Assembly (NCBI GenBank): GCA_038534095.1
Contig: JBCAXK010000003.1
Coordinates: 6,609-70,608, forward strand
Length of the DNA stretch: 64,000 bases
Direction of reading: 5' to 3'
From: Chlamydiota bacterium
GTDB taxonomy: Bacteria > Chlamydiota > Chlamydiia > Chlamydiales > SM23-39
Program-made: the position numbers and the translations under genes
The notes under the pieces: model-generated
Database searches by the model: none
What the model saw: only the letters and a program-made list of their open reading frames with translations
Told to the model about the DNA's origin: nothing
Shown here: piece by piece, positions 753 to 40,965 of the stretch
Layout: each line of letters begins with the position of its first letter
Numbering within the stretch: position 1 is the stretch's first letter

Positions 753-1565
753 TTAGAATGAAAAGGGTAAAAGGTAGGCAACGGTGAAAAAATTCACGCC
801 TTCGGGATAAGCTCCTGCCAAAAGCCTGCGAACATACTCGAAACGGAACGTACCCATTACCCCAATTTTGTAGCCATAACGGGCACCTACATCGAGAAAT
901 TTATACCGAATACGCCCGTAGCCAAAAAAATCATTTGGATCCACTTGGGTTCTTTTTCCATAACCATGTCCCCCTTCTAAAAAAAGAGCCCCGGTATGTT
1001 CGTCAAAGTACTTACCTTCAAAAGAGGCAGTTCCTGAGAACCAAGGAGAACCGCTCGTTGCAAATCCTAAAGAGCCGTATCCCCAAAATCGGTAACGAAA
1101 ATACCGATTGGGATCAAATTCTTTCCCAAAAGCGACATGCAATAAAAACTCCCCAGATCCGTGATAAGGGCAGCTCACATCTCGAAGCGAGCGCCTGGAG
1201 GTAAAGCGGGCAGAAACTCCCGTTGCTAAACTGAGAGGATCTCCAATCACATCGTCCAACCAAAGATAACGCCCTTGAAGGGCAAGAGAGCGGAAGCTAA
1301 AGGATTGACGCGAGGTATCTACGAAAGAAACTTCCCCATCTACGCTCCATTGGGGCGCTGGGGACGTTTCTATCGAAAAGTCAAAATCGTGATCCTTAGA
1401 ACCTGTGTTGGGGATCGTTTCACGGTTGATTTTGTGGTAATCGCTGTAGGTATAACTTGTGAGCAAATGAAACTCATAGACATCGCTAAACCAAGGTTGT
1501 TTTTCAAGACCTGAGGCAAAAGAGGGGAAAAGCCCACAAACCATGAGCGCGTAGAGCCATCTCAT
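753..1565 (-). CDS. putative outer-membrane beta-barrel protein (unknown family)
   Basis: From Met17 of the tracked ORF there is a signal-like N-terminus ([19 protein letters not shown]). The body is Gly/aromatic-rich with an alternating strand pattern and ends LLPFSF (terminal Phe). Its ATG overlaps the trxB stop (ATGA at 1562-1565). Confidence 0.6.
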
Positions 1566-2509
1566 AGGCCAAGTTCCGATAAGTAGCGCTCTGCATCTAA
1601 AGCAGCCATGCACCCCGATCCGGCGGCAGTGACCGCTTGGCGATAACGCTCATCTTGCACGTCACCTGCTGCAAAAACTCCTGGAATGCACGTTTTGCTG
1701 GTCCCTTTTTCGACTTCAATATATCCAGCAGGAGAAAGGGGGAGCTGCCCCTCTAAAAATTTTGTATTTGGCAAGTGGCCTATGGCAAAAAATACCCCGC
1801 CAGCTTCTTGTTCTTGAACGCTTTCTGTAACAAGATCTTTGATGCAAACTGCCCCAACAATCGCCTCCCCTTTTACTTCGTGCAAGACAGAATTCCAAAG
1901 AATCTCCACCTGAGGGTGCTGCAAAGCTCTTTCTGCCATAATTTTTGAAGCGCGCAAAGTATCCCGGCGGTGAACGATATACACTTTTTTTGCATACCTT
2001 GTCAAAAAAATCGCCTCTTCTACAGCGCTATCGCCCCCTCCAATGACATACACATCTTTATTGCGAAAAATCGGCGCTGCGCCATCACAAACTGCGCAAG
2101 AAGAGACCCCTTTCTGCCAAAATTCTCCGTCCCTTGTTCCAGGAATATCGAGCCTTTTTGCGCAAGCGCCTGTCGCAATGATGATTGCTTTTGCGCGCAC
2201 TTCGTCTTGTTTGGTTTTCAAGGTAAACGGTTTTTTTTGCAAATCCACGCTTACCACATCTTCTTGCCGAATTTCGGTTCCAAAACGGAGCGCTTGTTTT
2301 TTAAACGCTTCCATCATTTCTGGGCCTAAAATGCCCGAAGGAAACCCAGGATAATTTTCCACGTCGGTCGTTGTGGTCAGCTGCCCCCCTTCTGGTCCCG
2401 ATAAAAATCCAGAAAAAAGGAGCGGAGAGAGGTTGGCTCTTGCTGCGTAAATCGCTGCTGTGTACCCAGCAGGCCCCGACCCAATGATCACTAAATCTTT
2501 TTCTTTCAT
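1562..2509 (-). CDS. trxB: thioredoxin-disulfide reductase
   Basis: FAD motif [18 protein letters not shown], redox-active CAVCDG and NADPH motif [12 protein letters not shown]. Start taken at [10 protein letters not shown] (ATG at 2507-2509) rather than the upstream ORF start at 2578. Confidence 0.93.
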
Positions 2510-2636
2510 TACGATTTCCTTTTGAATTAAAAGTTGATTGTATCGAACTATCTGCAAAAATTCCACTAGAAAGGACAAAGAAAATCCCTTAAAATGTTTG
2601 CAAGACTTGTCGATAAAATTGGATCTTAAGAATCAT

Positions 2637-5859: not shown

Positions 5860-7085
5860 ATATTCGAACCCGTTTTTTCCTCTTTTTGATCCCCGCTACA
5901 TTCTTTAGCCATATTTTTATCGCTACTTGCATGTACCAAACGTGGAGCCTTGAAGTCCAAAAGCAGTTTGAAAAACGTTTCAGCGCCGCTTTAGAGGAAA
6001 AAGATGCCCTGTCAACAAGCGAACTTGCGCAGGCTTTAGATAAAGACTTTTTCCTAAAAACGCTCCGGGTGATCCCCAATATCCCTCCTGCTTTCCATCG
6101 GATTCACTTCAAAACTTCTTACTACCATGAAACGGTATTTGCGTACCTACCTCCCACAAAGATGCGAAGCGCTATTCAGGTCGATTTAGCAGCAAAAGAA
6201 CTCTTTTCCGAACTAAAATCTGGGATTTTTTGGACAGCGACTGCCGCTCTTATGAGCATGGGAATCAGTCTTTGCGGCCTGTTTCTTGCTACAAGAAAAA
6301 TTACCGCTCCGATAGAAGATCTTAAGAAAGCAGCTCTTGCGATCGCAGCTGGTGACTACGGACAAAACATCTCTGTCAAAGGCCCCAAAGAAATTCAAGA
6401 ACTATCAAACACGCTAAGCGTAATGAGTGAATGTTTGTATGAAAATAGTCAGCGCCATAAAGAATCCTTATTGGAAAAGCCGCTTGCTAGTTACGAAGAA
6501 ACCTCAGCACGGCACCTCCAAAAAATGATGTTTTCCATGAGAGCCAAAGACTCTAATTCGGACAAAATTTCGATCAAAACGTTAGCGCTCCACTCTCTTC
6601 AGCCCAAAGGTCTTCTTTTGGAGCTATGTGACTCGCCTGGGGCCCCCTTACAGCTTTCCCTGTTTGAAGCTAACCAAGCAGGGCTAGCTGGGATGTACGA
6701 TCTGTTGACCAATCATAAAACCAATCAAGAGAGCTTTCCCCAAATCAGCGCCTCGCTAGATGCGCGCTCCGAACTATTTTCCTACCAAACAAAACAATTT
6801 CCTACCCCTTTCCTTTGGTCTTTTCGGGAGAAAACCTTCTTCCCTTTAAAAGAAGACTGTACCAAAGTGGATTGCGGAGACTGTATTTTTCTTTATACGC
6901 CTTCTCTTTTCTCTCTGTACAAAACAGAAAAAGAAATGCAAAAACATCTTGGTAAGGTCCTGAAATTTTTTGCAGAAGAAGGGCTCGACCCCCTTTCAAA
7001 AATGCTGTACAAAGAAATCCATTTTTTCGCAAAAAAACAGGATTTTGATGAAGATATTCACCTTCTTTTCTTTCAAATTTTGTAA
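5856..7085 (+). CDS. membrane sensor with HAMP domain and a degenerate SpoIIE/PP2C-like (RsbU-like) C-terminal domain
   Basis: TM1 (FFLFLIPATFFSHIFIATCMY), a ~110-aa loop and TM2 (IFWTATAALMSMGISLCGLFLA). HAMP follows (ITAPIEDLKKAALAIAAGDYGQNISVKGPKEIQELSNTLSVM). The C-terminal region parallels SpoIIE blocks (ARHLQKMMF, LLLELCDSPGAP, CGDCIFLYTPSL, DEDIHLLFFQIL). Its ATG overlaps the upstream stop (ATGA at 5856-5859). Confidence 0.6.
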   Translation: MNIRTRFFLFLIPATFFSHIFIATCMYQTWSLEVQKQFEKRFSAALEEKDALSTSELAQALDKDFFLKTLRVIPNIPPAFHRIHFKTSYYHETVFAYLPPTKMRSAIQVDLAAKELFSELKSGIFWTATAALMSMGISLCGLFLATRKITAPIEDLKKAALAIAAGDYGQNISVKGPKEIQELSNTLSVMSECLYENSQRHKESLLEKPLASYEETSARHLQKMMFSMRAKDSNSDKISIKTLALHSLQPKGLLLELCDSPGAPLQLSLFEANQAGLAGMYDLLTNHKTNQESFPQISASLDARSELFSYQTKQFPTPFLWSFREKTFFPLKEDCTKVDCGDCIFLYTPSLFSLYKTEKEMQKHLGKVLKFFAEEGLDPLSKMLYKEIHFFAKKQDFDEDIHLLFFQIL

Positions 7086-32495: not shown

Positions 32496-33221
32496 GTGAC
32501 CAGTTTAAGAAATATCGATCAGAGTCCAAAGATACATGCTCATTTACCAAAAACCAATCACCAAAGAAAGCCCTCTTTAGCTCTACATGTGAAAACAATT
32601 CTTACTCAAAGAACAGCTTTTTCGGCAACAACACCTCATACGCTCTATTTACTCCGAAAAAAACTCGAAAAAGTACCCCACACCCCACATTTAGCAAAAC
32701 TTGTCCTCAGGACATTATCAGGATCGATCCAAGAAAACCGCCCAGAAATTTTTCAAAACATTTTTCATCTTCTCAGCATAAAGCGCACCATGCTTCCCGA
32801 TTTTCAAAGCCAACCTTTGGTTAGCAAGACAGACCTTTATCATCTATTTAGGGCGATAGAAGGGAAGAATCTACCGAACTTTGTGCAGCTTTTTCTCAAT
32901 TCTTATTACGCAAGCACCCTTTGTGACGAGGATGTTTTTACCTTTGTATTACAACTAAAAACAAGGCTGAAAGATCTGGATTTAACCACCATTTTTGATT
33001 CTAAAAGGGTTTTATGCCTTCCAGATCATTTCCAAAATACTTTGCATAGGGCAATACAAAATACTGCCCAAAAAAAAGAAGATCAATTTTTTTCAGAAGC
33101 TTTAGCTCGCCAAAATAGACAGAAAGAAAACCACTGTTTTACAGGGATTTTTGGACTCATCGCCATGGGATTTGCAAGTTGGACGATGTATCAGTACACC
33201 CAACTTTTTTTCGAGATATAA
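32496..33221 (+). CDS. hypothetical protein with a C-terminal TM segment
   Basis: 241-aa ORF with a GTG start, preceded by a ~220-nt extremely AT-rich tract. The N-terminus is basic and rich in Pro, His and Lys. There is a single hydrophobic helix near the C-terminus (FTGIFGLIAMGFASWTMY). Confidence 0.5.
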   Translation: MTSLRNIDQSPKIHAHLPKTNHQRKPSLALHVKTILTQRTAFSATTPHTLYLLRKKLEKVPHTPHLAKLVLRTLSGSIQENRPEIFQNIFHLLSIKRTMLPDFQSQPLVSKTDLYHLFRAIEGKNLPNFVQLFLNSYYASTLCDEDVFTFVLQLKTRLKDLDLTTIFDSKRVLCLPDHFQNTLHRAIQNTAQKKEDQFFSEALARQNRQKENHCFTGIFGLIAMGFASWTMYQYTQLFFEI

Positions 33222-33810: not shown

Positions 33811-35079
33811 CTATCTAGCAGAATCAATCCGGACAAGGATACGATTTTTTTTCCCTGAAGATAGTAAAACAAATGTTCCGCCAATAACATCGGTATCTGA
33901 AAAAACGTAATACGGATCTTGGATACGTTGGTTATTGATGTAGGCTCCCCCGTTTTTCACCAATCTTGTCGCTTCAGATTTACTAGACACAAGACCAATC
34001 TTGAGAGCAACGTCAGAAAACTTTTCTGCAACAATGGAAGAAACAACAGCAGAAGGAATATCTTGAGCGATTTCTTCAAGTTCCTCTTTGCTTAAGCGAG
34101 CTTCAGTTCCTGGCCTAGCCGTCTTGGTCACTTTTAGCGCTTTTTCTAGCCCCTCTTTTTGATGAACAAATCTTGTGAGCTCTTCAGCTAAGCGGCGTTG
34201 CGCTTGATTCGGTAAATAAGAAGAGCTCTTCATTTCTTGTTCTAACTGATGGATTTCTTCAATAGGAAGGAACGTTAGCATTTTCAACAAACGGATCACA
34301 TCTTGATCGGTTGTTTTCATGATGCTTTGATAAAACTCGTAGGGGGACATCCGTTTAGAATCCAACCAAATAGCGCCTTTTTCTGTTTTACCCAGCTTAT
34401 TCCCATGAGCATCTGTCAGTAATGGAAAAGTGAGGGCGTAAGCCTCTTCTTGTCTTTTTTTCCGAATGAAATCAATACCTGCTGTCATATTGCCCCATTG
34501 ATCAGATCCCCCAATCTGCAAAGAAACCCCTTTTGAAAAAAGCTCGTGAAAATCGTTTGCTTGCAGCACTTGATAGCTAAACTCACAAAAACTCATCCCT
34601 TCTTCCGACTCTAGACGAGCTTTCACACTCTCCTTCCCGAGCATAGGACCTAATCGAAAATACTTGCCGATATCGCGTAAAAAATCGATGGCGCTCAAAC
34701 GAAAAAACCAATCGTAATTATTCACAATAACAGGAGAAATGTCTGCTGTTTCTGAGGAAAATATCTTGGATAAAAAAGAGAGTATCTGGGCTGTATTATC
34801 TTCAACAGTTGCTTGGGAAATGGTGGTTCTTTCTGTTTTTTTTCCAGAAGGATCACCGATCAAAGCAGTAGCGCCGCCGACCAAAATATAGGGTTTATGC
34901 CCATAGTTTTGCAGAGCTTTTGCAACGATAATTCCTAACAGATTGCCCAAATGCAGGCTATCGGCTGTAGGATCAAAACCGATATAAAAAGATCGAGGAG
35001 TCGTTAGAAAGGCGCGTAAATTCTCACTGCTTTTCCTTTCAATGAGATCTCTTTCTTCTAAGTAATCAATTGCAGACAT
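33811..35079 (-). CDS. tyrS: tyrosine--tRNA ligase
   Basis: HIGH-type motif (DSLHLGNLLG), KMSKS-type motif (NKLGKTEKG) and a C-terminal S4 domain. Start taken at MSAIDYLEERDLI (35079) rather than the upstream ORF start. Confidence 0.92.
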   Translation of the reverse strand: MSAIDYLEERDLIERKSSENLRAFLTTPRSFYIGFDPTADSLHLGNLLGIIVAKALQNYGHKPYILVGGATALIGDPSGKKTERTTISQATVEDNTAQILSFLSKIFSSETADISPVIVNNYDWFFRLSAIDFLRDIGKYFRLGPMLGKESVKARLESEEGMSFCEFSYQVLQANDFHELFSKGVSLQIGGSDQWGNMTAGIDFIRKKRQEEAYALTFPLLTDAHGNKLGKTEKGAIWLDSKRMSPYEFYQSIMKTTDQDVIRLLKMLTFLPIEEIHQLEQEMKSSSYLPNQAQRRLAEELTRFVHQKEGLEKALKVTKTARPGTEARLSKEELEEIAQDIPSAVVSSIVAEKFSDVALKIGLVSSKSEATRLVKNGGAYINNQRIQDPYYVFSDTDVIGGTFVLLSSGKKNRILVRIDSAR

Positions 35080-35469
35080 ACAAAACATAGTAAAAAAAAA
35101 CAGGGTTTCAAGCAAGAAAAGCTGCTCTCTTTTTCCAGGCATATCGGCCTGCGATCTCAATATTCTAGTGGGCCGCAGAATCATTAGGCAACTTCCTAAA
35201 AAAAGAGACTAATCGACCAGAAAACAAGGGTTGCAAACAAGCTCTCTTACGCAAGACTTCTTGCAATAGAGCGTAAAATAGCCGTTTTTTACTTAAGTTG
35301 ACGGCGTTTCTGAAAGCATATGATAGCCAAGTAATCATCTAGTGCTACTCATGTTGAACTTTTGCAAGCATAATTTCAGATCTCTAATTATACAAAGCAT
35401 GTCTTTACGATGATTTCCACGAAATAGCTTTTAAAAATATGCGAAATAAATCTAAACTAGCTATCATCT

Positions 35470-35499
35470 CAATTTTTTAAGAATCAATTTTTTAAGAAT
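35470..35499. repeat. perfect tandem duplication of the 15-mer caattttttaagaat
   Basis: Unit 1 at 35470-35484 and unit 2 at 35485-35499, ending 66 nt upstream of the 1201-aa ORF start. Confidence 0.9.
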
Positions 35500-35565
35500 A
35501 TCTTACGTATTTTTCCAAAAATTGAAGACAATCACCGAAAACTATTTATTAGGGATGTATTACTC

Positions 35566-38500
35566 ATGTCCGCTCTTCAATGTGTTAAACAAACAATGGA
35601 AATCGATTATTCTGCCATGTCGGCAGAAGAAAAGGCAGATAGTAAACTAATCAGCAGAATCAAAAGGTCTGTTAAGGCTATGAATCTGGTCGGCTCAGAA
35701 GGTAAGAAGTCGAAGCTCGCTAAAAGAATGATATCCCTTTGTAACGAACATGAACACAACATGGCCTCTTTTAAAGCAGCGATTGAGCACTTACCTTGGC
35801 CAGGTGCGCCAGACCAAAGATCAACGCTATTCCTCCTGAAAGAAGCCTTTATTATCGAGAAACACCCGAATAGAATGGACTTTTTAAAGAAATATGGAGG
35901 GATTCCTTGGTGTCAAAAAAACGGGCCTGATTTCGAAGCTTACGATTATCTTGTAAACATACTAGTCTCTAATGATAATAATGATGATTATTACGAATTA
36001 CGTTCAGTGCTCTCTTCCTTTCTCTCTCATTCAATCGAGAAAGAGATTTCCAAAGAAATACTTCAACGCCGTTTTATGAAGAAAATCTTAAAAGCTTACG
36101 AGGAACCAGATCGGTCTATTGATAACAAACAGGATTGGATTGGAGAAAATACATACACCCCAGATGAATGGATGGTTGCGACAGCTATTTTCCACGAAAA
36201 TATTTATCTTGCAAAAAAGTGGATAAAGGCTTGTACCTCTCGTGGTGATTCCTATGCTATCGCCCACTTTGCAGTACAAAAAGCCTTTGAAAATGACCGA
36301 TGGGATTTAGCTAACGAATTCTTTGAGGAAAACATACCAAAACAAGCTTCTAACAGAGAACAATTCCTAAAGACTGGCTTTGAAAAAGCTTTCCTCAATC
36401 ATTGTTCGGATCAAAGTCTTATCATCAACTTTTATTTTCAAAAACTGGAGCCATCGTCCTGGATGAAAAAATCTCAATGGGATGCTAGTAAATGGGTCGT
36501 AGACAAGCTCACCGATACTCACTACCCTATCGCTGATCGGACTGAACTCCTAATGAGCTTTTTACAAGGTCGTGAAAGAATGGTAGAGAACAAATCATCA
36601 CCAATGAACAGTTTGCTAACAGTTACAGTGAACAACATTTTGAAAACCCAAGATTGCAAAGAAATTTTTCGCAGATTATTGGATCGCTACATGCCTACAT
36701 CCCTTGCTCTCAAAAAGCGAGTTGGTCCGGAGTTTATCGACTATTTTATTGACATTTCTTACGGAATAGCAACTACAAAAAACGTAGACAATATCCTATT
36801 TTATCTAAATGGGAATGAAGATCGACTATTTGGAAAGGAAACTTTGTTGAAGGGGGTAATAAGACGACTTACAGAAAATAACAAAAAAGCCTTTGCAAAA
36901 AGATTATTCAATAAATACAAATCCCGACCTTATCCCAATATAAAAGAAGGTTCGTACGCAGAGTACTCTCTTCTTTTTATCCACCATATTTGCCAATATA
37001 AAAAAGATTGGATCGAGTTTCTCTTTGGGAACGAAGATGAAAAGTTTGGCAGAGATATTTCTTTACTAGTTGAATCAATAAAGCGTGCTGTTAATTTTGG
37101 CGCCATAAATTTTCTCATCAAACTATTGAAAATGTACGGAAATAATGTTTTTATCCCAAAAGACTCCGATACTGAGTCTTCTTATGGAAAATTGATTGTG
37201 AAGCAGCATTTATCGAAAGGAAAAGTTCTTAATTTGCTCAAAATTTTAGAAGGAATTGAACAAGTTCATCGGGAAACATTATTACAAATCATTATCGATG
37301 AAGCCTTTTTTGAAAAAGCGGAAGATCTGATCGAGGGTCTATGGAAAAAGTATCGTCACTTAAACATACCTTCAGAAAGACTTTTATTAAACATACCTCC
37401 AAAAAGACTTGTAAAAGCATCTTATGGATCTTACATGGTCTTGAAAGGTTTTATCTGCGAAAATTATCGATTTTTAACTACATGTATAGACAGCTGTACC
37501 GAACATGTTTGGTTTCAGGGCAAGAAAATTACGGTAGCTGAGCTTATTGCTAAATCATCGATAGAAAATCATTGTAAAAATTTTTTCCAAAAGTGCTTGA
37601 TAGAATATGATAAAAAACGTTCTAAATTCAGTAAGAAACACCGAGAATACCGATTAGTGTGTAGAATTTTCCATCGCGCGTTAATGGAAAAACATGAGGA
37701 ATTTCTTAAGCTCTTTAAAACGACCTTGCTGTCGATAAAGGAAGACCTGGGCTCACTTTTCTTATATACCTTACAGGCAGTTATAACACTTTTGGCAAAA
37801 GCATCTCCTACAGGGAAGATCGATAAAGCAGCACAAGAGATCTTAGAGCTGACGATTTCCCACGCAGCGACTGGAAGTGATCATCTATTTAAAGAGATTT
37901 GCTCGAAATTTTCGAAAGAAAAATATAGTGATACATTGCAAATAAAACATGTATTACTTGATTACTGCGTGGAACAAAACGCTAATCAAAGGGCAAAAAT
38001 GCTGATACAAAAACATAGGGACGACCGCTCACAAGTAATCCAAGACGAGGGGGGCGCCTTCTCATGGAATTTTGTCTCTTTAGCGATTGTTTTTGCGATA
38101 AAACATCGCAATGAAGATGTGCTCAATGATTGCCTTACCAAATATAAAGATCATCTTTGGGAAAAAGTTGGAGGTACTAGTTCTATGGGCGCCTTTGCAA
38201 TTGAAACAGCAATACAATATCACTACAACACTTTTGTGATGAAAAAATGCAATAAGAATTTAAACAATTCACAAACTAGAGAAAAGACGCTCAATTGCGT
38301 ATGGAGACTAGCAAATAAATATTCCAATCGAGCGCTCATGCTCGAGCTATTCAACCGTTATCGAAAGTACATTCCGGAAGAAAGGCTTTATCAGCTAATT
38401 AGTTCTTACATGCGCTCTGCCAGTAACATGCTTTTAATGTCTAAAGATATTCTTGAGTATAACCGAGAAATCCGAGAACTTCGGACATCTATTTTCAACC

Positions 38501-39171
38501 TTTCTGGTAAGAAAGATGAATTTTTGAATACAGAAATCCTTTATTTGGATATACGCAAATGGCTTAAAGAACATCGCTTTTCAGAGAATGACATACATCT
38601 CATTCAGTACATAGTGAGCGCATTAGAAACAATTAACCTTCCTTTTTTGGATTTATATACTTTTCCTTGCAGCCTAGAAAACAATTTTTCTCCAATGCCT
38701 ATGAAAAATTTTTTTCAGAGCATAATAACTGATTATTATCGGAATAATATAACAGCTAAATTATCGAACATCATGACAGAGCAGGAAATCGTGAGAGATG
38801 AATCTAGTTTGCGCGCAATGGAGCTAGATCCTGCGCGTCGAGATTGTCCCGCTATTCGCAAATTTCGCGATGATCTAATATGCTGCCAGCGCTATCTATT
38901 GGCTAGAAAGAGCCAAAGCACGCAGCCATCAGTCTTAGATTGGATTTGTGCGCAAAACCCAGACAAACCAAAAAACTGTCAGACTCTAGAGCCTATTAGG
39001 CAAGCCAATGAGATGAACGTGGAACAAGAAGGTAAATCGCGTATACAAGACAGACGAATAGATCGTGGTGATGAAAAAGTATCTTCGGAAGAAAAATCTC
39101 AGCAATGGCATAAAAGATCGGAACAAAAGGCTTCTAGTAATACACACTCTTCCTCAAAAAGGGGTTCGTAA
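35566..39171 (+). CDS. large hypothetical protein (1201 aa), predicted all-helical with a recurring motif; candidate secreted effector
   Basis: Uninterrupted 3.6-kb ORF with Lys/Asn/Ile/Phe/Tyr-rich, A/T-biased composition. The motif h-x-x-h-h-x-[KR]-Y recurs, for example FLKKYGG (106), ILKAYEE (174), LLDRYMP (371), LFNKYKS (447), LLKMYGN (520), LWKKYRH (592), CLIEYDK (677), CLTKYKD (856) and LFNRYRK (928). The C-terminal tail is charged and Ser-rich. Confidence 0.8.
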   Translation: MSALQCVKQTMEIDYSAMSAEEKADSKLISRIKRSVKAMNLVGSEGKKSKLAKRMISLCNEHEHNMASFKAAIEHLPWPGAPDQRSTLFLLKEAFIIEKHPNRMDFLKKYGGIPWCQKNGPDFEAYDYLVNILVSNDNNDDYYELRSVLSSFLSHSIEKEISKEILQRRFMKKILKAYEEPDRSIDNKQDWIGENTYTPDEWMVATAIFHENIYLAKKWIKACTSRGDSYAIAHFAVQKAFENDRWDLANEFFEENIPKQASNREQFLKTGFEKAFLNHCSDQSLIINFYFQKLEPSSWMKKSQWDASKWVVDKLTDTHYPIADRTELLMSFLQGRERMVENKSSPMNSLLTVTVNNILKTQDCKEIFRRLLDRYMPTSLALKKRVGPEFIDYFIDISYGIATTKNVDNILFYLNGNEDRLFGKETLLKGVIRRLTENNKKAFAKRLFNKYKSRPYPNIKEGSYAEYSLLFIHHICQYKKDWIEFLFGNEDEKFGRDISLLVESIKRAVNFGAINFLIKLLKMYGNNVFIPKDSDTESSYGKLIVKQHLSKGKVLNLLKILEGIEQVHRETLLQIIIDEAFFEKAEDLIEGLWKKYRHLNIPSERLLLNIPPKRLVKASYGSYMVLKGFICENYRFLTTCIDSCTEHVWFQGKKITVAELIAKSSIENHCKNFFQKCLIEYDKKRSKFSKKHREYRLVCRIFHRALMEKHEEFLKLFKTTLLSIKEDLGSLFLYTLQAVITLLAKASPTGKIDKAAQEILELTISHAATGSDHLFKEICSKFSKEKYSDTLQIKHVLLDYCVEQNANQRAKMLIQKHRDDRSQVIQDEGGAFSWNFVSLAIVFAIKHRNEDVLNDCLTKYKDHLWEKVGGTSSMGAFAIETAIQYHYNTFVMKKCNKNLNNSQTREKTLNCVWRLANKYSNRALMLELFNRYRKYIPEERLYQLISSYMRSASNMLLMSKDILEYNREIRELRTSIFNLSGKKDEFLNTEILYLDIRKWLKEHRFSENDIHLIQYIVSALETINLPFLDLYTFPCSLENNFSPMPMKNFFQSIITDYYRNNITAKLSNIMTEQEIVRDESSLRAMELDPARRDCPAIRKFRDDLICCQRYLLARKSQSTQPSVLDWICAQNPDKPKNCQTLEPIRQANEMNVEQEGKSRIQDRRIDRGDEKVSSEEKSQQWHKRSEQKASSNTHSSSKRGS

Positions 39172-39586
39172 CCAAGGCTCTCTCCCTAAATTTTGCCTGA
39201 AAGTCCTGTGCCGCATCATTATCTCCTAAGATATGCGTCTCGTAAAAAATCGTAGGCCGCTAAGCCTTGGGCATGACTGGTTTGGGCCTTGCGCAATCTA
39301 GGTATGAGACATTTCATAACCTCAAAATCTTTCTAAAGATCCACACTAGGAAAATAGGTGATTTCATCAACATATCCCTAAAACGTACCGCAATTCCTAA
39401 GAGAACTGCGCACATAATCCGCCTTGCTCATAAAAGCTTCCCTACACAAAAAAAACACAAACTCTTTAAGAAGAAGATCATACTAATCTCTATTCACTAT
39501 ATATCTCCATGAAACTCGACCGGAAAACTTGATCTGCAAAATAGGCTCAAGACTTCGAAAAAAACTCTTGGTCAGCAGAGAAACTC

Positions 39587-39955
39587 TCACTGAATTTTTC
39601 TCATGAGAGCGCCGATCGTTTGCGCAATATCTACTTGAATAGGCTTTCTAGAGGAAAAAAGCAGTCCGCTTGAACAAGCTTTGCGCTCCGTATTCTTCAC
39701 GGTCGATCGCATATAACGCAATTTTTGTCTTAGAGCTTTAGCGATGATTTTCTGTTTAAGATTTTCGCAGCGATGCTTTCTATTTGTTTCCCGCGCTCCT
39801 AAACCTTTTGTGGCTTTGCTATCAGGGTTTCTCATCATGCTTCTATTCCCTACAGGCTGAATTGGAGATCTCACCACTTTAATAAAAAAATTCTTTACCA
39901 TCAATAGCTCATCACCTAGAAAGGTAAAAATTTTTCGCTTAGATTCTCTCTTCAT
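39587..39955 (-). CDS. hypothetical highly basic protein (doubtful)
   Basis: 122-aa Lys/Arg-rich ORF in a region that otherwise looks non-coding or decayed. No family recognised. Confidence 0.3.
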   Translation of the reverse strand: MKRESKRKIFTFLGDELLMVKNFFIKVVRSPIQPVGNRSMMRNPDSKATKGLGARETNRKHRCENLKQKIIAKALRQKLRYMRSTVKNTERKACSSGLLFSSRKPIQVDIAQTIGALMRKIQ

Positions 39956-40287
39956 GCGCTTAATGAAAAGAAGATACTACCTCTAAAAAATGGGCGCCAT
40001 TTTTGGAGAGTAAAGACCCAATGTACCTATCCAATCGAATTAAGGAATAGATTCTCTACTTTTGCAAAGAAAAAAATTCTCATTCGTGCTATTCCGGAAA
40101 AAAACGTAAGATATTTTGTGCGATTTTTAAGAGAGCAAAAACCCCATCTCTTCAGTAAGTCTTCACTCCCCTTGCCCGTTTGCTAAAAGATCCTTTCAAA
40201 AAGGAAGAGAAGATCCCCATACAAAAAATTTCGGTGACAAGAATACTTTTTGTTGTGCATTCTTAGAGAAACGTGAGGAATCTTCGC

Positions 40288-40965
40288 ATGACCAATCAGA
40301 CCATTAAAGAAGGTTTAGGCTACTACGCAGTCCAGTTCATCAAACAGAACATGATTGTTGGCCTTGGCACAGGCTCGACAGCGAGCTGTTTTATCCAAGC
40401 CTTGGCAGCTGCTTGTCAAAAGCAATTAGACATTCAAGCAGTCGCCTCATCTGAACAATCGTTTTTTCAAGGAAAGCGCCTAGGCATCTCCATGCTACCT
40501 TTTGATCGGGTCGATAGAGTCGATCTAACGGTCGATGGGGCTGATGAGATCGATCCACAACATGAGCTCATCAAAGGGGCTGGAGGCGCTCATGTGCGTG
40601 AAAAAATTCTTGCCCACTTTTCCGATCGGCTCATTATTTTAGCCGACGAGACTAAATTAGTAGAAAAACTCGGCGAAAAAAAACCTCTGCCTGTTGAAGT
40701 CGTCTCGTTTGGAGCGAGCGCTACAAAGACCTACTTAGATAAGCTGTGTCCAGGGTGCTTGTTAAGAAAAACGGAACAGGGAAGCGCCTGGAAAACAGAT
40801 AACGGAGGCATGATTTTTGATCTCCCTTTAAGAGGCAAAAATGTATCCGATCTCCATCCATCCATCATGGCCATACCGGGGGTAGTAGACACAGGCTATT
40901 TTTCCAATATGGCAACCAAAGTTGTGATTGGATATCAGAATGGATCTATTTCTACTCTGCGTTAG
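40288..40965 (+). CDS. rpiA: ribose-5-phosphate isomerase A
   Basis: GLGTGSTA, VDGADEID and LIKGAGGAHVREKI blocks. ATG taken at 40288; the tracked ORF begins at an upstream GTG at 40273. Confidence 0.9.
   Translation: MTNQTIKEGLGYYAVQFIKQNMIVGLGTGSTASCFIQALAAACQKQLDIQAVASSEQSFFQGKRLGISMLPFDRVDRVDLTVDGADEIDPQHELIKGAGGAHVREKILAHFSDRLIILADETKLVEKLGEKKPLPVEVVSFGASATKTYLDKLCPGCLLRKTEQGSAWKTDNGGMIFDLPLRGKNVSDLHPSIMAIPGVVDTGYFSNMATKVVIGYQNGSISTLR

Follow-up and report, generated by a model that had tools for sequence, protein, structure and literature searches.

In the Parachlamydiaceae, eukaryote-like repeat proteins that join F-box or BTB domains to leucine-rich repeats or tetratricopeptide repeats (TPR) form expanded families with birth-and-death evolution, and have given positive results in a heterologous type III secretion assay (Domman et al. 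2014, PMC4209131). The locus described here is a large gene, P0001, at positions 35,566 to 39,171 of a 64,000-nucleotide stretch of contig JBCAXK010000003.1 (positions 6,609 to 70,608) from the Chlamydiota bacterium assembly GCA_038534095.1; this stretch is called the window. As in the Parachlamydiaceae families, P0001 is one of several lineage-specific copies in a small genome of the same phylum, copy number and structure vary between close relatives, and the products are repeat-scaffold candidates for type III effectors. The reading we favor, with a probability of about 0.55, is that the family proteins are type III secretion substrates that act as scaffolds for binding host proteins. It is drawn from the presence of a type III system in the genome, failure to find the type IV core proteins VirB4 and VirD4, a protein without signal peptide or transmembrane segment, a repeat scaffold of a protein-binding type, and the lineage-specific, AT-rich and hypervariable character of the family.

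The gene, its paralogues and their insertion sites

P0001 is a genuine protein-coding gene, because it is a 1201-codon open reading frame (ORF) at 37% guanine plus cytosine (GC), an independent assembly encodes the identical protein, its paralogues also keep open frames, and the ratio of nonsynonymous to synonymous substitution (dN/dS) in the family is below 1. The ORF is uninterrupted and begins at the first start codon in frame, and the resulting N-terminus, MSALQCVK, aligns with MSMVQCAK and MSTIRCVQ of paralogues. The independent Logan assembly (SRR22824329) recovered tyrS, the tyrS-P0001 junction and the first 941 codons of the gene, with a protein sequence identical up to the final residues, where the contig stops. 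Between strains, dN/dS for family genes was 0.64 in a comparison of 416 codons and 0.78 in one of 796. An earlier sequence-only reading of the window had called the gene A/T-biased and rich in Lys, Asn and Ile, which the genome-wide distributions bear out. GC is 0.371 compared with 0.440 ± 0.024 across 703 long ORFs in this genome (1st percentile), GC at third codon positions is 0.350 (5th percentile), and K+N+I make up 23.2% of residues (98.6th percentile). The statement that no motif could be assigned also stands: Pfam, NCBIfam and PADLOC scans of P0001 and its paralogues returned no family, for Pfam even at E ≤ 10. No sigma-70 promoter match above chance was found upstream of P0001, promoter and terminator scans gave results at or below chance, and an Rfam scan of the 64-kb window had no match.

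With full-length P0001 as query, its own genome (1.6 Mb in 87 contigs) gave seven more matching stretches, and 40 related genomes gave none. The sequence-only reading had pointed to paralogue families in related genomes; a family of about seven genes exists in the genome of origin, and none of the 40 relatives has a member. The family was extended by iterated hidden Markov model (HMM) searches of all six-frame ORFs of the genome, which yielded nine ORF pieces. Among 1.84 billion representative proteins, a profile search matched nine, eight of them the ORFs of this genome and one new (P0010, 264 amino acids (aa)). P0010 comes from a 98%-identical strain, in which it adjoins a 1242-aa member, P0011, on a 14.7-kb Logan contig (L020, from SRR27352957). 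P0011 matches the cut piece C72b in its N-terminal part and C25 in its C-terminal part, and the cut pieces are, by this correspondence, probably halves of single genes, which gives the count of about seven. A profile of the C-terminal domain run against 300 genomes of the order gave two marginal matches, neither convincing, and the family was not found in the genomes searched, namely one of the same genus, 24 of the same family and about 300 of the order. As far as public sequence data go, the family is limited to a single lineage of one uncultured, chlamydia-like bacterium. The paralogues are 17–38% identical with open frames of 600–1242 codons, and they differ in repeat number, P0011 having one extra 73-aa double unit in the region matching aa 342–689, and in architecture, C13a having no C-terminal domain.

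The family genes are AT-rich insertions into otherwise conserved housekeeping gene orders at two sites, tyrS|rpiA and ribF|ychF. Three genomes of the same family have 448–579 bp between tyrS and rpiA, with pepF and groEL coming next; the distance is 5088 bp in the window, so the gene-order comparison identifies P0001 and the 1.1 kb behind it as an insertion. At the second site, five relatives, the same-genus genome included, share the order infB-rbfA-truB-ribF-ychF with ribF and ychF adjacent. The strain represented by L020 has 5.6 kb containing P0010 and P0011 between these two genes (L020:3789-9414). In the genome of the window the same site holds a larger array of three genes, C13a, then C13b...C72a, then C72b...C25. 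The type III secretion genes sctU and sctV come after ychF. SctV (PF00771) is encoded at C13:6690-8675 (E 3e-220) with the SctU-like ORF adjoining it, and the two are 1.7–2.9 kb from C13a.

Strain comparisons, which rest on the single contig L020, indicate rapid change within the array. The flanks of the two strains are 97.6–98% identical in nucleotides compared with 66–80% for the family region, which is also rearranged. Identity jumps from about 78% to 97.6% inside P0011, near L020 nucleotides 6836–6997, which marks a recombination breakpoint within this 1242-aa gene. The N-terminal 416 codons encode protein that is 62% identical between the strains compared with 92–99% for neighboring housekeeping proteins. 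P0001 itself contains a tandem duplication of 27 nucleotides that encodes LNIPSERLL/LNIPPKRLV in an inter-helix loop; it is not in any paralogue and is a recent event. By analogy with the effector families of the Parachlamydiaceae, the variable repeat number, the variable architecture and this duplication point to birth-and-death and recombination dynamics. The window locus was sought in the sister strain through the identical HU, GroEL, rpiA and tyrS proteins, and only Logan contigs of the same strain were retrieved.

Two genes flank the paralogue C18 (L010, equal to C18:16000-22000). One encodes a 246-aa SET-domain protein (L010 1166-1906, minus strand, E 2.5e-14) and the other a zeta-toxin-like protein (L010 4449-5345, minus strand, E 5.9e-10). 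SET-domain proteins are known as chlamydial nuclear effectors.

Repeat architecture and predicted fold

The sequence-only reading had described a helix-end motif, h-x-x-h-h-x-[KR]-Y, recurring at ten sites often 68–85 residues apart. All ten sites are present in P0001, as are the three helices quoted with them. The protein contains six copies of the strict pattern [AVILMFWYC]xx[AVILMFWYC][AVILMFWYC]x[KR]Y, compared with 0.51 ± 0.69 expected from 2000 composition-preserving shuffles, none of which gave as many. Each of the ten sites is helical in the AlphaFold model, and the tyrosine is the last or last-but-one helix residue at seven. Internal repetition was measured by comparing 100-residue segments of the family profile with the whole profile in hhalign, with column-shuffled controls; the built-in self-comparison mode of the program gave no output. 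The off-diagonal scores were 50, 50, 46, 43 and 33, and the maximum of 88 column-shuffled control segments was 22.3. Residues 342–491 aligned with 492–700 at 97.1% probability (E 6e-11, 90 columns) with an offset of about 147, and a second alignment of the same segments at 68.9% probability had an offset of about 73. These off-diagonal scores above the shuffles, with duplications at about 73 and 147 residues, show that the spacing of 68–85 residues is real.

The structural basis of this periodicity was provided by AlphaFold2 models built on the family alignment, the alignments behind the models being shallow (6–8 sequences). The full-length model is all-alpha, with a mean predicted local distance difference test (pLDDT) score of 69.9 and values of 75–90 over aa 200–690. 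A separate model of aa 340–700 has a pLDDT of 78.9 and a predicted template modeling score of 0.74. The basic unit in both models is a helix of about 11 residues, a three-residue turn and a second helix of 8–11 residues, and secondary-structure assignment by DSSP shows the loop after each hairpin often briefly beta-bridged with the next loop. Residues 199–700 contain 14 such hairpin units spaced 31–48 aa apart (mean 38.4 ± 5.3). In every other unit the second helix ends with the h-x-x-h-h-x-[KR]-Y motif, and 73 residues therefore correspond to two units and 147 to four. The super-repeat of about 147 aa in aa 342–689 accordingly consists of four units, with the alternating double unit of about 73 aa bearing the motif. 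The sequence-only description of a divergent tandem array of two-to-four-helix modules agrees with the models, the module of about 73 aa being two hairpins (four helices). Beyond aa 700 the helices lengthen, and the solenoid extends to about aa 960 in the full model.

The regions on either side of the predicted solenoid are distinct. The N-terminal region (aa 1–189) has pLDDT values of 30–76 and aa 1–22 are predicted to be disordered; four paralogues show conservation of the extreme N-terminus. Neither a signal peptide nor a transmembrane segment was found in P0001; the maximum Kyte-Doolittle 19-residue window over the whole protein is 1.49, and the protein is soluble. The C-terminal domain (aa 961–1130) is common to six family genes, the most divergent included. 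It carries eight invariant residues across the six members, which are otherwise only 18–34% identical to P0001 there, and the motifs LR(K)..CP...D.FL.P, S..D...L..I...L...LPFL, P.I..F..E and W. Helices and one beta-hairpin are predicted for this domain, which had no PDB or Pfam match. PDB sequence-profile matches for the whole family and for the C-terminal domain were rejected as noise (SsaV, E 0.32; HP0062, E 0.21). Residues 1132–1200 of P0001 are predicted to be disordered, and the tails of paralogues bear KRKR or RKRR clusters followed by TSSS.

A 482-aa canonical ankyrin protein from another chlamydial family (G051:C1:478076-481228, 1141-2589, plus strand) carries ELSFDDMSEIAYLFKKIQDKNCPFLSE. 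This segment resembles the S..D...L..I...L...LPFL motif of the C-terminal domain with E 2.8e-4 per genome and an hhalign score of 27.9 compared with a shuffle maximum of 20. The sequence resemblance may reflect a shared short module or chance.

Foldseek was used to compare the models with known structures. The best PDB match of the full model was the 24-repeat solenoid of AnkB (4rlv), with E 1.1e-5 and a template modeling (TM) score of 0.15 relative to the query (TMq). HEAT, ARM, TPR and pentatricopeptide repeat (PPR) solenoids were close behind, every TM-score was below 0.26, and the TPR proteins Ski3 and Ctr9 appeared only among these generic solenoid matches. The central model (aa 340–700) had no PDB match at E ≤ 1e-3; all matches had E ≥ 3.7e-3 and TM-scores below 0.5, the best E-value belonging to a designed PPR protein (5i9d, E 3.7e-3, TM 0.21). 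Ankyrin domains made up about 35 of the 50 PDB matches listed for this model, led by 3eu9_B (E 9.9e-3, TMq 0.34, TM-score relative to the target 0.47). Nearly all of the 50 listed matches among the viral models of BFVD were giant-virus ankyrin proteins, at E ≥ 1.2e-2. The suggestion that the array is TPR-, PPR- or Sel1-like in spirit holds in part: PPR is among the nearest fold matches, ankyrin and PPR are nearer than TPR or Sel1, and all are below significance.

The frequency of ankyrin matches raises the alternative that the family consists of highly divergent true ankyrin-repeat (ANK) proteins, an eroded offshoot of a superfamily that intracellular bacteria and giant viruses often encode. 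AnkB heads the full-model matches and ankyrins dominate those of the central model, the models show the pattern of a helix-turn-helix followed by a beta-bridged loop, and GxETLL and GRDISLL at the opening of helix 1 recall the ankyrin GxTPLH when read as sequence. However, the Pfam ANK models match none of seven family members at E ≤ 10, and the ANK, PPR, TPR, Sel1 and HEAT models taken together likewise gave no hmmscan match in these seven. Alignment of the family profile with the canonical chlamydial ankyrin protein of G051 by hhalign aligned zero repeats. The mean period is 38 aa rather than 33, helix 1 is about one turn longer, and the central model matched the designed PPR slightly ahead of any ankyrin at uniformly weak E-values and TM-scores. 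We regard descent from ankyrin repeats as unlikely. Because the fold matches are weak and both the Pfam repeat models and the ankyrin profile comparison were negative, ascription to a named repeat class is withheld and the array is described from the models as a predicted ankyrin/PPR-like two-helix solenoid.

Candidate functions of the family

The export reading starts from the finding that a type III secretion system (SctV, SctU-like) is encoded in the same genome. VirB4 and VirD4 were searched for in the genome and not found; of the two kinds of dedicated protein-translocation machine looked for, only type III was detected. In the proposed mechanism, the family proteins would be exported as type III substrates and the solenoid would serve as a protein-binding scaffold inside the host cell. 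The conserved C-terminal domain and tail would supply a common function, for example targeting, modification by host enzymes or docking, and paralogue turnover and recombination would diversify the binding surface.

Several observations weigh against type III export. No secretion signal is recognizable by sequence in the family. No chaperone gene is adjacent: the neighbors of P0001 are tyrS, HU, rpiA and a 122-aa orphan, and no chaperone family was detected near the paralogues. The order ychF-sctU-sctV is itself conserved, so the nearness of the array to the secretion genes may be incidental. No eukaryote-like domain (F-box, U-box, canonical ANK) was detected in the family. The dN/dS values of 0.6–0.8 and the truncated copies (P0010 at 264 aa; C13a) also fit relaxed constraint, and the P0001 tail does not have the strong basic clusters of the paralogue tails. 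A U-box match in one paralogue (E 0.014–0.02) was rejected because it was below the cut-off, had no counterpart in the other members and did not show the hairpin expected of U-box domains.

The lack of a recognizable secretion signal, chaperone or eukaryote-like catalytic domain would also suit a helical-repeat scaffold that stays inside the bacterium, one that for instance organizes complexes of the developmental cycle or the envelope and does not contact the host directly, and the generic alpha-solenoid fold does match housekeeping scaffolds (karyopherins, SF3B1, Ski3). Core bacterial scaffolds are normally conserved, however, and this family was not found in the same-genus genome or in the family- and order-level genomes searched; it is moreover multi-copy and differs between 98%-identical strains. 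We judge an intrabacterial role to be quite unlikely.

Export as type III substrates can be extended to a bolder proposal, which we consider improbable. The family would represent a new class of type III-delivered proteins directed to the host nucleus, built from a new repeat of about 38 aa, the C-terminal domain and a basic-cluster/TSSS tail recognized as a module by importins or host kinases, and rapid hot-spot recombination beside the secretion genes would retune the host targets. The SET-domain gene beside C18 would fit this proposal. Bipartite-like basic clusters occur in four of seven family tails compared with 10% of the other long proteins of the genome. Nuclear targeting is a low-probability lead because the tail of P0001 itself has no such clusters.

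The insert at tyrS|rpiA bears on one further alternative. The sequence-only reading took the approximately 1 kb behind P0001 for decayed sequence, which the searches did not confirm. The spacer has no similarity to the family or to any other part of the genome by hmmsearch, blastx or blastn and no long plus-strand ORF, and it holds the 122-aa minus-strand ORF, for which no match was found in 40 related genomes. A relic of a family gene was rejected for want of any HMM, blastx or blastn signal, and a 15-nucleotide downstream match to a repeat resembling an insertion sequence (IS) at contig ends was dismissed as chance, nothing aligning past the 15-mer. A 20-nucleotide inverted repeat brackets the inserted 4.6 kb; the pair is unique in the genome with a genome-wide E of about 0.1. 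It is weak evidence on how the insert arrived and may have been left by the insertion itself, or by the splitting of a palindrome in the ancestral spacer between tyrS and rpiA. That P0001 is cargo or a remnant of mobile DNA without a host-directed role, brought in with the 4.6-kb insert by a transposition-like event, in a family that spreads selfishly or by drift and is partly decaying, would accord with the flanking repeat (19/20), the low GC, the truncated and chimeric copies, the dN/dS of 0.6–0.8 and the IS-like repeats at contig ends, but is very improbable given that the analysis detected neither a transposase or integrase nor a target-site duplication, that the repeat is a single short match which does not recur at other family loci, and that several copies retain frames of more than 1200 codons.

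Features of the locus and comparison with known systems

The coordinates of the gene, its domains, its surroundings and its paralogues are collected in the table.

Table. Positions and supporting evidence for P0001, the inserted segment and the family members; plain numbers are window positions, and C-numbers are contigs or pieces of the same genome.
Feature	Position	Strand	Evidence or remark
P0001, large gene	35566..39171	+	complete, 1201 codons; member of lineage-restricted paralogue family
Divergent tyrS (-)/P0001 (+) intergenic region	35185..35565	.	AGGGA Shine-Dalgarno-like site 10 nt before ATG
N-terminal region, aa 1-189	35566..36132	+	paralogue alignment; LPWPG and PW motifs conserved
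Predicted alpha-solenoid, aa 190-960, ~20 two-helix hairpin units	36133..38445	+	DSSP of AlphaFold models, Foldseek
Best-supported internal repeat, aa 342-689	36589..37632	+	hhalign off-diagonal matches and shuffle control
In-frame 27-nt tandem duplication, 89% identical	37360..37413	+	repeat search; gap in paralogue alignment
C-terminal domain, aa 961-1130	38446..38955	+	alignment with 8 invariant columns; DSSP
Disordered basic Ser-rich tail, aa 1131-1201 (HKR...SSSKRGS)	38956..39168	+	pLDDT <40
tyrS, left border of insertion	33811..35184	-	Pfam, NCBIfam; synteny
rpiA, right border of insertion	40273..40965	+	Pfam, NCBIfam; synteny
Spacer P0001-rpiA, 1101 bp	39172..40272	.	hmmsearch, blastx, blastn
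Putative 122-aa very basic orphan ORF	39587..39955	-	no Pfam, NCBIfam or PADLOC match
Inverted repeat, left arm, 20 nt, 19/20 complementary	35497..35516	.	repeat search
Inverted repeat, right arm	40096..40115	.	158 nt upstream of rpiA
Family tandem array in the genome of the window	C13:1-3826, C72:1-3422, C25:1-2429		ribF-ychF, beside sctU/sctV
Family pieces: P0001; C13a 775 aa; C19 859 aa; C18 603 aa			six-frame HMM searches
Contig-end-cut family pieces: C13b, C72a, C72b, C25			six-frame HMM searches
Weak family member	contig C1		C-terminal domain in common

Three observations concern neighboring sequence and the assembly. Upstream of the HU gene, an ORF of 241 aa (32496-33221, plus strand) has no Pfam or NCBIfam match, and the gene calls on the independent Logan contig include it as well. 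The tyrS match in one relative (L019, G009:C2 177208-178470) has one in-frame TAA, which may be a sequencing error or mark a broken gene. A repeated element terminus, gcgtcgcataACTACCTCTAAAAAAattacaaaggtagcgtttatacaac, is present at contig ends C10:1-80, C43:1-90, C52:1-90, C58 (minus-strand end), C7:50-190 and C63:3785-3920, and probably belongs to an insertion sequence at which the assembly breaks off.

Environmental chlamydiae, most of them uncultured, form a large reservoir of host-manipulation proteins, and the P0001 family indicates that even a 1.6-Mb genome of the group builds and quickly reshuffles its own large repeat proteins without detectable relatives. It also provides two concrete insertion sites, one of them beside type III secretion genes, and a case of turnover between near-identical strains. 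If the proteins are secreted, both the repeat scaffold and the conserved C-terminal domain would be new subjects for study, and the locus could serve to mark host adaptation at the level of strains. If they are not, the result is a clearly bounded orphan family whose general interest is modest.

Among described repeat proteins, ankyrins are the most frequent fold-search matches of P0001. AnkB (4rlv), HIP14/DHHC17 (3eu9) and the giant-virus ankyrin proteins share with the P0001 models helix-turn-helix units with short beta-bridged loops stacked into a solenoid, whereas P0001 has its longer period of about 38 aa instead of 33, no TPLH signature and neither a Pfam nor a profile-profile match. PPR proteins, such as the designed dPPR 5i9d and the rPPR proteins of plant mitoribosomes, resemble P0001 in being two-helix hairpins of about 35 aa that form a superhelix. 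They differ in that the TM-score is only 0.21, no Pfam PPR match exists and the predicted beta-bridged loops are foreign to PPR, and nothing in the analysis suggests RNA binding by P0001. From the Parachlamydiaceae families, P0001 and its paralogues differ in several respects. No F-box, BTB, U-box or RING domain was detected, the sole trace being the U-box match at E 0.014 in one member. The family is far smaller at about seven genes, its repeat unit is a two-helix hairpin of unassigned class, and no relatives are known for its N- and C-terminal domains. The orphan family itself is new, and it belongs to a well-known kind of gene.

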